A stretch of 64,000 nt of DNA from Eledone cirrhosa (Eukaryota). Of this stretch, positions 5,233 through 41,361 are shown piece after piece. Position 1 is the first letter of the stretch, and the number at the start of each line of letters is the position of its first letter. The position numbers and the translations under genes were made by a program. The notes under the pieces were generated by a model. The model searched no databases and was not told the DNA's origin. It saw nothing but the letters and a program-made list of their open reading frames with translations. The stretch is taken from assembly GCA_964016885.1 (NCBI GenBank), contig OZ024746.1, forward strand, positions 58,962,001 to 59,026,000, written 5' to 3'.

Positions 5233-5435
5233 GAAGGAAATGTGGTAAGGAACCAGGTGGACCATAACGCACCAAAGTACTCAATACTTAGGGTAGTAGA
5301 GTGGTTAATAGGAACCAGTAAGACCCCGACGGCTGAGCTCAAGCCGTTTAGACGGCTAATTCAGGACTGAATTCAGTCTAGAATTAGCCGTCGAAACGGC
5401 TTGAGCTCAGCCGTCGGTGTCTTACTGGTTCCTAT
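5233..5435. mobile_element. Fold-back element family F1 (mirror-image half-hammerhead), copy 1
   Basis: Palindrome taggaaccagtaagaccccgacggc...gccgtcggtgtcttactggttccta plus a unique tail; homologs at 17601, 34257, 39431 (partial), 41171 and 56993 (partial). Confidence 0.8.
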
Positions 5436-5810
5436 ATATATATATATATATATATATATATATATATATATATATATATATATATATATATATATATATA
5501 TATGCATGTATGTGTATATATGTGTATATATATATTACCAACAAATTGAATATCCCTTCTGCTTATGTATATATATATATATGTATGCGTATATATGTAT
5601 ATATATATATATATATATATATATATATATATATATATATATATATATATATATATATATATATATATATACATATATACACATATATATATATATATAT
5701 ATATATATATATATATATATATATATATATATATATATATATATATATATATATATATATATATACATACATATATACACATACATGTATATATATTTTC
5801 TGGAGTATAA

Positions 5811-6143
5811 TATACAATGATATTAAATAAATGGAAATTATATTTATAAAACCATATTTATTCTATTATATATATTTCAAGGGTACCAAAACTTTGGTAC
5901 CCGCTCATCAGATAAGATACAAAGTTTGTTTTATAAATTTTGACATAACCAAGAAAAGATACCTTAACGGTTCAAGTTTTTCTTGGATTGTCACTATCCA
6001 AGAAAAACTTGAACCGTTAAGGTATCTTTTCTTGGTTATGTCAAAATTTATAAAACAAACTTTGTATCTTATCTGATGAAATATATATAATAGAATAAAT
6101 ATGGTTTTATAAATATAATTTCCATTTATTTAATATCATTGTA
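5811..6143. mobile_element. Fold-back element between (TA)n tracts carrying a hammerhead on the minus strand
   Basis: Near-perfect inverted repeat with turn at about 5989-5995; related copy at 18407-18560. Confidence 0.85.
5861..5918 (-). ncRNA. Type I hammerhead ribozyme
   Basis: Reverse complement: tcttat CTGATGA gc gggtaccaaa-gt-tttggtaccc tt GAAA tatata TA atag. Confidence 0.75.
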
Positions 6144-6543
6144 CATATATATATATATATATATATATATATATATATATATATATATATATATATATAT
6201 ATATATATATATATATATATATACACAGATCAGAGCAAACATCATGGACGCTCTATCTCAAAATTATTTTTGAAAAGCATTTAGAAATGCGCAGCCGGTA
6301 AATCTTAAAACCAAAACTGAATACTAACCAATACAATTACTAATTCTCATTTATTCCTAATTAAACTATTTTTCACTGTGAACAATTTGTCAGCATTTTC
6401 TATTCCGTTTACCAATATATATATATACATATATATATATATATATATATATATATATATATATACATGTTATATACATATATATGTATATATATAAATA
6501 CATACATATATGTATACATATATAAATATGTATATATTAAATA

Positions 6544-7050
6544 CTAGCAGTGGTACCCAGCGTTGCACGGGATAAGGTATTTTGGAACGCGGGTCGCCAA
6601 CAGACCTAATCGTGGAAAAACTACATGCCTGGACAATATGTAAAGAAAATAAACCGAATACTCTGATGGCTGGATAATCTTTAAGATTTTCCTCGATGAA
6701 GCAGGAAAAATTCAGGTTCTCACCTAATACAGGCCCTAGTGGATCAAGGAAATAATTTTTTGTGTGCCTTGAAATTTCGGGAAAAGCGGCTAGAGTACCG
6801 CCTCCTAAAAGCCATAAAAAGCTTTTAAAATGAAGTTTTTCACCTAATGCGGGCCCTAGGCCTTAAAAAAGTTGGAATTTCTTTGCTCACGGACTGACAA
6901 GGAAATCGGTCTGACGTAACGCCTCAATTAACCCCCTAAAAACCTGAAAAAACGCTGTCAATGATGACCAAAAGGTGTGTTAGAACACCCTCAAGTGTCT
7001 TGAAACCAGAACAGACCTGTATTTTTTTCTCTGGCACACTTCCTATATAT
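6544..7050 (-). mobile_element. Non-autonomous Helitron-like element
   Basis: Minus-strand 3' end cccgtgcaacgctggg hairpin + taccactgCTAG|t; the same end occurs at 19704; 5' end approximate. Confidence 0.6.
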
Positions 7051-7395
7051 ATATACGTATATACACTGTAGTTTGAGTTTGATAAAGATATCCAAGGGTA
7101 AGAGCACTCAGTTCGTATATATATATATATATATATATATATATATATATATATATATATATATATATACGGGATAACAGGTTATCGTTATAGGCAGTCC
7201 ACGACTGAAAACGAGTGGTTATAAACAAAGTATTGGAGTCGATTGACGCAACATCAAGCGAGTAGCGGACTCTAAACCTACCAGATCAAAGAAACAATTG
7301 TCAGCAATGCGAATAAAGCCCTTATTGTATAGCAAACCATGTCACTCTTATTTCTTATATATATATAATTTATAATAAACAATACGATATAATTA

Positions 7396-7466
7396 CCTCA
7401 TTACCAGAGGTTTCCCGAATAAGACGATAACAAGAAACGTCCTCATTCGTTCGTCCTCAAGAAAGG
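7396..7466 (-). ncRNA. Degenerate hammerhead in a PLE-like 3' UTR remnant (about 7355-8060)
   Basis: Reverse complement: TTGAGGA...cgaatgaggacg/cgtcttattcg..GAAAC ctctg GTA atgagg; stem III nearly identical to the PLE-1 HHRs. Confidence 0.55.
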
Positions 7467-8285
7467 AAAAAGTCTAATGTGCAAAAAAAATATAAATATA
7501 TGTAATGCAAGAGATATATAAAAATAAAATAAGGAAATATAGTTAGGGTATGTGTATATATGCGTGTATATGCACTCATAAATGTACATATGTGTGTATG
7601 TACAAATGCATGTGTATAGTGAAAAAATGTGTGCGTAAGTACAAATATGAGGGCAAGTATATCAGTCTATGTGTGACCACAAATACGTATATAATATATG
7701 TTGAAAAAAGAAATTGTAAGAGTTAACATACATAAAGACGCAGGGACTAAGGATTGACACACATAAAAGTATGAAAGCACACACACGCGCGCAACCACAT
7801 ACATGCAAGTGATATATACAGGGAAGGGAGTGTATCAGTCAAAGCAGTTTCAGGCTGAAGATAGATACATATATAAAAAATATAAAATATGAAAATGAAA
7901 AAATGAAAAAATATATGAGAATAAAAAAATTAAATCGAAGAGTAAGTAAGAGGGAGGGGTTATCAATTATAAAGTAATACTAGAAAAAATAGAAAACATA
8001 CATAGGTTCGTACATACACATATATATAAAAATATATATATAAATACGTACAGACAAAAGCACATACATGCGTACATACATACAAAAGCGCGCATACATA
8101 CACACGAAGCACATATATATACGTACATGTACATCTAATCACACGCACGCACGCGACTATATATATATATATACATACACACACACACATATATATATAT
8201 ATATATATATATATATATATATATATATATATATATATATATATATATATATATATAAGAACAAAAGATGGTTAAAGGAGTTCCA

Positions 8286-39701: not shown

Positions 39702-39963
39702 TAAAATTGAAAAGGTGTAGAATATCATGGTCTACAGTACAAAAAAGGGGATTTATTTACAGTCTAACAATTGAACAATTGTTTTTCTGATAAAGTTGTC
39801 TAAAAATTGCTGATCGAGCTAGCATCGTATTTAAAATTGAATAGCACTGCTTCTAGTGTTTAGCAATTTTTAGACAACTTTATCAGAGAAACAATTGTTT
39901 GACTGTAAATAAATCACCTTTTTTGTACTGTTGACCATGTTATTCTCCACTTTTTCAATTTCA
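39702..39963. mobile_element. Fold-back element with half-hammerhead arms
   Basis: Inverted arms around 39810-39860; ...ttatcaga GAAAC aatt GTT tgactg. Confidence 0.7.
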
Positions 39964-40039
39964 TATATATATATATATATAAACAAGCAAATTATAAACG
40001 TAAACATGTAAGTATGTTTTTGAAACGGTGCGCGAGTTT

Positions 40040-40207
40040 TGAAATTAGAAATTGGAAAATATAAGCTTTCACCGTATTTTAGACTAAAGAAATGGCAACA
40101 CTCATCTTTTTCCATTTCTCCGAGGGTTATAAACCCCACTATCAGGCTAGAAATTTCTTTAGTCTAAAATACGGTGAAAGCTTATATTTTCCAATTTCTA
40201 ATTTCAT
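40040..40207. mobile_element. Fold-back element with half-hammerhead-like arms
   Basis: Perfect arms of about 52 bp; ...aaaatacggt GAAA gc TT atattttcc. Confidence 0.65.
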
Positions 40208-40272
40208 ATATATATATATATATATGGAAAAGTAAACAACACAAAGAAAAATTTACCTATTTAATATATATA

Positions 40273-41078
40273 CTAGCCCAATTACCCGCGCCTTGCTGCG
40301 TTTCTCACATTTTTTTTTTTTTCTGTAAGAAAATGATAATTGATTTTAAATCAGTGATATAATTTATGGAGAAAATCTCTGCATTTCAATATTACTCAAT
40401 GTAAAATGTATTGCATGAAAAATGGAAAACATTATTTTTTGTAATATATCAAATCAAAATTACATTATTAAATCTTATTCTTATTTTGTTTCTTGTAAAT
40501 ATTTATTTCAAAATATCAATTCAAATCTTTTGTGAATAGTCATCATATGTTGTCATTTACCTATGGTTTAATTTTCATATAAATCGAAGGGAAAACATTT
40601 TCAGCGGTGGTTTGTGCTCCCAGGCAACCCTAATAGGGAGTTTAACCCCCCATTACGGTGTCTTAATATTATTGAAATTTGCTGAAATTTTGTGAATATG
40701 CATCATATCTTGTCATTTACCTATCGTTTAAATTTCATATAAATCGAAAGGAAAACATTTGCAGCGGTGGTTTGTGCTCCCGGACAACCCTAATAGGGAG
40801 TTTAACCCCCATTACGGTATCTTCATATTATTGAAATTTGCTGAAATTTTGTGAATATGCATCATATCTTGTCATTTACCTATCGTTTAAATTTCATATA
40901 AATGGAAGCGAAAATATTTTCAGCGGGGAACCCTTTCATTAAAATGAAATATACTTATCCAAGCACCCTGGGCAACATACTTTCAGAATATATATGGTTA
41001 TGGCGGTCTATCTCCAAAACCATAGGAGGAGTTCGTGAGGAAAGAAACAAAGAGACAGACCAGGAACAACAACTTATA
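40273..41078 (-). mobile_element. Helitron-like element with an internal about 160-bp tandem repeat (2.5 units, 40530-40930)
   Basis: Minus-strand 3' end cgcagcaaggcgcg..gggCTAG|t; repeat unit tgtgaata..catcatat..cagcggtggtttgtgctccc; 5' end approximate. Confidence 0.55.
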
Positions 41079-41170
41079 TATATATATATATATATATATA
41101 TATATATATATATATATATATATATATATATATATATATATATATATATATATATATATATATATATATA

Positions 41171-41361
41171 ACGAAGGATGTGTGGTGAGGAACCAGGTGG
41201 ACGATAACGCACCAGAGTAATCAATACTTAGGGTACTAGAGTGGGTAATAGGAAAATGTTCTAGACCCTGACGGCAGAGCTCAAGCCGTTTCTGGACTGA
41301 GTCCAGAAATAGCCGTCGAAACGGCTTGAGTTCTGCCGTCGGGGTCTTGAACATTTTCCTA
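41171..41361. mobile_element. Fold-back family F1, copy 4
   Basis: Homologous to 5233-5435; flanked by (TA)n. Confidence 0.8.

Follow-up and report, generated by a model that had tools for sequence, protein, structure and literature searches.

The stretch of DNA analyzed here, referred to as the window, comprises 64,000 nucleotides (nt) of the Eledone cirrhosa genome (GCA_964016885.1, contig OZ024746.1, positions 58,962,001 to 59,026,000, forward strand) and carries four short palindromes of a family, F1, that almost certainly originate from a Penelope-like element (PLE). An initial annotation of the window had recognized in every copy the 3' half of a hammerhead ribozyme together with its own mirror image, and this description holds: GAAAC, a helix III of ACGGC/GCCGT around a loop bearing GAGCTC, GTC, and GGGGT are found in all four (Table 1). 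Also borne out are the placement of the center of the palindromes in helix II or loop II and the origin of the arms in the reverse transcription of a ribozyme-bearing parent. The genome that was searched for related copies is 3.0 Gb in size and rich in TA repeats. We refer to the palindromes as stubs, and negative numbers denote nucleotides upstream of GAAAC.

Table 1. F1 stubs and fragments in the window
Feature	Position	Strand	Description
Stub 1	5231..5434		Tailed left arm (sense -) and untailed arm (sense +)
Stub 1, untailed arm	..5434	+	GAAAC at 5393; cleavage site 5415/5416; end CCTA at 5434
Stub 2	17599..17799		Older subfamily; tailed left arm ends at -18/-19
Stub 3	34258..34451		Untailed left arm ends at -11; tailed right arm (sense +) from 34312 (-18)
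Stub 3, extra G	34311	+	Non-parental G directly before the A at -18; likely a copy of the cap
Stub 4	41170..41361		Tailed left arm ends at -18; untailed right arm from 41300 (-18)
Stub 4, extra G	41299	+	Non-parental G directly before the A at -18; likely a copy of the cap
Fragment	39426..39508	-	F1 tail only, between TA runs
Fragment	56999..57032	-	F1 single arm, helix III region
Fragment	18655..18677	-	Very short piece of an untailed arm, older F1 subfamily

Both arms of stub 1 reach about -22, and the tailed arm of stub 4 has a 12-nt deletion between TTTC repeats. The outer ends lie at TA steps, as annotated, although the left end of stub 1 is not embedded in a (TA)n run. Likewise, the distal arm sequences are generally alike within a copy, except in stub 2, the two arms of which are of different subfamily types, and in stub 3, in which 3 letters differ. 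The motif gacggcta, upstream of which a parental CTGANGA had been expected, mirrors the 3' strand of helix II and differs from the parental 5' strand, G(T/C/A)TCGGCTATTT. A search of the whole window against Rfam gave no match at the gathering score.

F1 palindromes occur in the genome far beyond chance, since controls with reversed patterns gave no matches: at least 13,919 short palindromes with exact flanks and a center of 8 to 38 letters were counted, against 0 for the reversed pattern, and the exact 16-letter arm word has 66,110 matches, again against 0. Among the best 30 matches to stub 4, the outer ends in (TA)n are constant and the centers differ. Arms start at two places, 19 nt and about 100 nt past the cleavage site, each at a TA step, the more distant start giving an arm its tail. 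Exactly one tail was present in all 41 palindromes of a first sample (40 stretches, among the first 50 matches listed) and in 107 of the 110 pooled over all loci examined. The two arms are identical in 63 of the 110, compared with 8.4% between copies, and they share a type in 59 of the 62 palindromes in which both types are common; two types meet in one palindrome in L183, L023, L105, L057, and stub 2. Judged from the sequences, this distal variation is subfamily variation.

The parent expected by the initial annotation, a copy with CUGANGA, was not found. There are 49 matches to CTGANGA within 34 nt of GAAAC, and the 30 that were read are chance matches or junction products and include no parent; the longer hairpins among the matches extend upstream into a 3' untranslated region (UTR) of 1.2 kb and an open reading frame (ORF) for a reverse transcriptase (RT) and a putative endonuclease. 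This element forms head-to-tail arrays of a 3,542-nt unit, often with an additional inverted arm, and the units are 99 to 100% identical, so that the family must be young; a protein search (95 scored) gave many copies with intact 784-codon frames at equal scores. The parental ORF, with 717 amino acids, has 2,015 homologs, most of them unnamed, and its structural model (predicted local distance difference test score, 93) has telomerase TERT 3du5 as its best Foldseek match (E = 1.8e-8). Pfam and PDB sequence searches gave nothing for the young ORF, and Pfam RVT_1 (E = 0.0011) was matched solely in one older copy. The GIY-YIG region was read by eye from a VIYQ...AYIG motif with R, H, E, and N; its Pfam match (E = 0.069) is below the cutoff, and the best homolog carries PF01541. 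Further motifs of the ORF are RWR, DKT, CNCPDRSIC (the CxCX5C linker), CNLC (CxxC), and CKH (CxH), with no CCHH and with one C inside the GIY-YIG core. A telomerase-like RT in a single ORF, tandem pseudo-long terminal repeats (pLTRs), a hammerhead in the pLTR, and an inverted, 5'-truncated copy with a tail at one end are traits of endonuclease-positive PLEs, and the F1 parent has them all. It appears to belong with the Hydra clade, having the RWK/DKT/CxCX5C/CxxC/CxH motif set without CCHH and a (TA)n target, a placement made by motifs; it lacks the usual length of <3 kb and the canonical CUGANGA, neither of which defines the clade. An earlier label, Neptune, was dropped after comparison of the motifs with section 11 of PMC8557442.

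As read from its sequence, the parent carries a whole type I hammerhead with a long, covarying helix II, in the order ACCCC, TTGANAA, G, bulge, helix II, GAAAC, helix III, GTC, and GGGGT. The 3-8 pair, G10.1-C11.1, GAAA, NUH, and the three helices of the type are all present. The core is UUGANAA (U3-A8) instead of the anticipated CUGANGA; in genome pattern counts, core position 8 is G in 14 matches versus 2,456, and all four letters occur at position 7 (N7). Helix II consists of nine pairs, CGGCTATTT/AAATAGCCG, around a 31-nt loop, and of CAGCTAGAT/ATCTAGCTG with another loop in the older subfamily; the nine pairs are thus kept through three double changes between old and young subfamilies, which we treat as three events and not as a statistic because the 10 rows compared are related. 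In these hand-picked rows, 92.9% of the cells are paired, and U3-A8 is found in 9 of the 10. Schistosoma PLEs are known to have the same U3-A8 variant (PMC4209133). In one subfamily (L107, L117, L118, and L140), C3 stands opposite A8 and the core pair is broken, yet the subfamily has spread, which fits insertion without a need for cleavage.

The arms end preferentially at one place in this ribozyme. Exact-pattern counts fall from 66,110 at GAAAC to 36,256 at -18 and 13,490 at -23, with about 80% of arms ending ≤23 nt upstream of GAAAC, and further upstream they are 5,567 at the core, 7,458 at -74, and 2,401 about 1,250 nt upstream, a loss of about threefold over the next 1.2 kb beyond the hotspot; the counted patterns differ in length and degeneracy and miss some variants. 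Immediately 5' of the A at -18, 7,108 matches have G, 1,195 have A, and 6,817 have C, which leaves 21,136 with T by subtraction; of the intact parents, 0 of 77 have G there. Both arms have the G at 432 loci at -18, at 111 at -17, and at 14 at -19, compared with 11 loci at which both arms have A at -18; about half of those listed from the class of 432 have a one-letter spacer, which a templated CAG piece would also explain. When the first 30 G matches (27 loci) were read by eye, 13 were found to exclude an origin of the G in the opposite arm, whereas at 13 of the 27 loci it could derive from that arm or the flank, and 1 has foreign flanking sequence. The first 100 non-T matches of the older subfamily gave 35 G, 10 A, and 55 C. 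The word TTAGT(C/T)C at this site has been kept while the remainder of loop II diverged, and we take it to resemble an initiator. The young subfamilies have a TATA-like word at -29 to -31, which was not used as evidence because the old subfamily lacks it.

The center of a stub is, in our view, very probably a fixed 5' end of the template RNA, and this end is probably capped. The F1 palindromes are thus likely to be the shortest insertions of the PLE, in which complementary DNAs (cDNAs) ran off the 5' end of a capped mRNA within loop II. Transcription would start at the A of (T/C)AGT(C/T)C inside loop II; the mRNA would begin with the 3' half of the ribozyme alone and would therefore be unable to remove its cap by cleavage in cis. 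The RT, using its start sites in the 5' pLTR, would meet the cap after 60 to 140 nt and add a C opposite it, and two head-to-head cDNAs, primed from both ends of one (TA)n target break, would be joined with an overlap of 0 to 2 nt or with small inserts. A promoter and start site have been located in the pLTR of PLEs (PMC2377424; PMC8557442, section 10), and in L1 an untemplated G at a pyrimidine-purine start is an accepted sign of a copied cap (PMC9341517). The excess of G and the read-through described below suggest that the RT probably runs off the RNA and does not turn at stem II, as had been supposed.

A newly started RT might instead stall at helix II or loop II, on the structure or on a bound protein, so that only processive enzymes pass. 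This is unlikely, although the hotspot falls in the longest helix of the ribozyme, the ends are spread over -5 to -22, and no full-length copy begins at -18. We read the first 30 of the 250 sites at which the tail continues towards the ORF, counting one array once. The upstream helix II is read through by all 19 arms (from 16 loci) that extend >1.2 kb into the ORF, a result that speaks against a structural stall; nine of the remaining 11 stop at the hotspot. A stall also sits poorly with the preservation of TTAGT(C/T)C in an otherwise diverged loop II, with an excess of G tied to -18 and -17, and with jumps that depart from the same site, for in six of eight stretches from hotspot-stopping arms the copy jumps from -17 to -21 onto unit positions 190 to 918 and the second run ends at the same hotspot. 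Jumping from template ends is known for the R2 RT (PMC8857657). A structural stall had been our first label for the hotspot and was dropped after the 19 of 19 read-through. At six loci (L352 to L357), we note that the landings cluster near the ATG, at unit positions 190 to 213 in four of the six.

The initial annotation inferred that reverse transcription turns at stem II, with priming of the second strand by TA microhomology. In such a model, a single cDNA primed at the tail doubles back within helix II and serves as its own template as far as CCTA, where TA microhomology anchors it. This explains the frequent identity of the two arms and the short self-copied pieces seen in some centers, and self-priming has been proposed for the junction palindromes of rotifer PLEs (PMC3846280). 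Fold-back may shape some joints; as the main route it is quite improbable because, at the center, the tailed arm is about as often the shorter as the longer one (longer in 19 of 41 palindromes, shorter in 18, and equal in 4) and because its partner is often the longer arm in long insertions, being far longer in L203, L211, L212, L249, L251, and L259. Loops of zero or one letter are common, moreover, and some palindromes combine differing arm types. Two separately primed arms fit best, since fold-back of the tailed strand cannot give these center and partner lengths. In vitro, an anole PLE uses two internal RT start sites and both target strands are extended (PMC11167929), and an inverted PLE copy with a one-sided tail has already been described (PMC8557442). 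Among the other long insertions, the head-to-head arms of L248, L216, L214, and L213 are almost equally long (about 3,050 and 3,070 nt in L248), as if two RTs had moved together. In L032, L042, and L048, a hairpin of foreign sequence is fused to a single arm at loop II.

A template 5' end fixed in loop II by a nuclease cut, with the G as a non-templated addition by the RT, would account equally well for the hotspot, the jumps, and the read-through, but the end lies at a pyrimidine-purine step in a word that is presumably initiator-like. The same sign is used for L1 in PMC9341517, and PLE start sites are known in pLTRs; on these grounds we hold a cut to be very unlikely, even though non-templated addition and jumping are linked in the R2 RT (PMC8857657). 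Finally, a DNA-transposon miniature inverted-repeat transposable element (MITE) or a self-propagating palindrome, suggested by the fixed outer ends in TA and the high copy number, has a negligible probability and is refuted by the parent element, for the ends are asymmetric and are not terminal inverted repeats, one arm having an 80-nt tail, the centers vary from copy to copy, and the arms grade into an RT-encoding parent (a target duplication would be unreadable inside (TA)n).

To the reservations already attached to the pattern counts and to the origin of the G must be added several other points that weigh against a run-off from a capped end. No match to the Penelope downstream promoter element (RGACGTGY; PMC2377424) was seen by eye. 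Among the 19 long arms, no full-length copy starting at -18 was found, though some would be expected from a linear mRNA that is capped and has both pLTRs, and long arms must therefore derive from templates that lack this end. Many arms do not reach -18, so that trimming at the joint is needed, and some extend to -19 to -22. The finding of one arm type in 59 of 62 palindromes fits fold-back as well as it fits one RNA or sister RNAs. Rfam misses the parent ribozyme, which folds no better than shuffled sequences (z = -1.2 and 0.7). No usable RNA run was found, those located being of small share or unknown kind; of four that were compared, one, X13, has the two arm starts and a drop in depth at loop II, but its kind is unrecorded and it may be the assembly's own sample, and it was not counted as support.

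The evidence is for two classes of template. Most insertions are likely to be abortive run-offs, and templates that have no 5' end in loop II, either a circle made by the ribozyme or a multimeric transcript, would give rise to the long and tandem copies; a circle model has been proposed for tandem PLE copies (PMC4209133). A bolder extension, which we put forward tentatively and consider doubtful as a whole, is that transcription starts inside the element's own ribozyme and leaves a half-hammerhead at the cap, that linear RNA mostly gives abortive stubs while the whole ribozyme downstream cuts both ends to make the circle for full-length copies, that the ribozyme is thereby a switch between a dead-end and a productive path, and that the half-ribozymes, tens of thousands in number, are substrates for cleavage in trans. 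If this is true, DNA alone could suffice to locate the start sites of a PLE family by its stub centers.

Several related elements were noted. L351 (G000:C2:356028500-356034500) consists of eight perfect 299-nt tandem units built from the F1 pLTR and ORF start, with a shortened loop II; this retrozyme-like derivative fits a circular template, and it has the tandem units with a whole hammerhead in each that characterize non-LTR retrozymes, which the stubs do not. In the window, TA-flanked palindromes of another family (16955-17533 and 41929-42372) have a whole CTGA(A/T)GA hammerhead-like motif on both arms, and in a third palindrome family (17878-18141, 38203-38441, and near 51462) the turn is close to the 5' core of a hammerhead-like motif whose helix II is very long. 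Other families contribute single hammerhead-like motifs at 41733 and 58246-58707. More palindromes, at 5814-6142, 11656-11993, 18405-18536, 20010-20605, 39705-39960, 40043-40203, 51654-51846, and 57122-57663, lie mostly between TA runs and are probably stubs of other PLE families. There is also a 3.6-kb inverted duplication at 194-3776, with arms that are 92 to 99% alike.

PLE insertion, the choice of template, and the role of the hammerhead are described as open questions (PMC8557442 and PMC11167929), and F1 is a young, very abundant family that has recorded both cDNA ends tens of thousands of times. If the center is the cap, the half-ribozyme is explained, internal initiation is costly, the majority of events being aborted within the 5' pLTR, and circular or multimeric RNA would be required for productive copies. 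In such genomes, hairpins that resemble MITEs may be misfiled retroelement stubs, and such stubs are a large potential source of double-stranded RNA.

F1 can be compared with several known systems. With the Hydra clade, including Hydra-1_Obim, it shares a single ORF with the RT, followed by GIY-YIG in Hydra elements and by a putative GIY-YIG in F1, the same motifs (RWR for RWK), the (TA)n target, and tandem as well as inverted, 5'-truncated copies that are tailed on one side (PMC8557442). It differs in its unit of 3.54 kb with a 1.2-kb 3' UTR, where Hydra elements are mostly <3 kb, in its tail of about 80 nt versus 30 to 40, and in its U3-A8 ribozyme with a helix II of nine pairs and a 31-nt loop, all Hydra ribozymes listed there being CTGANGA; according to the supplement of the same paper, the Hydra-clade member from octopus has a different, canonical ribozyme. 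The sharp end hotspot with excess G is undescribed for Hydra elements in the accessible text of PMC8557442, and a cap or hotspot reading for PLEs was not found in the literature searched, which covered few subscription papers. The Schistosoma element Cercyon has in common with F1 the U3-A8 core, a long helix II with a bulge near G10.1, a palindromic loop III, and pairs of motifs on opposite strands (PMC4209133), whereas helix III has its full 5 pairs in F1, and most F1 genomic copies are the 3' half alone. Poseidon PAc of Anolis likewise has two internal RT starts that define the tail, and both strands are nicked and extended, with ribozyme cleavage unnecessary for insertion (PMC11167929); it belongs to another clade, and F1 uses each of the two sites once in nearly every insertion and has RT end positions recorded in its genome, run-off stubs and caps not being discussed in the available part of that paper. 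The non-LTR retrozymes of animals are derived from PLE pLTRs (bioRxiv 10.64898/2026.07.22.740005), as is L351, in contrast to the F1 stubs, which have neither a whole ribozyme nor tandem units. In L1 the extra G marks full-length success (PMC9341517), whereas in F1 it would be the sign, on both arms, of an abortive stub. Inverted PLE stubs as such were therefore known already; what F1 adds is a likely capped, fixed 5' end inside the ribozyme and evidence for two classes of template.

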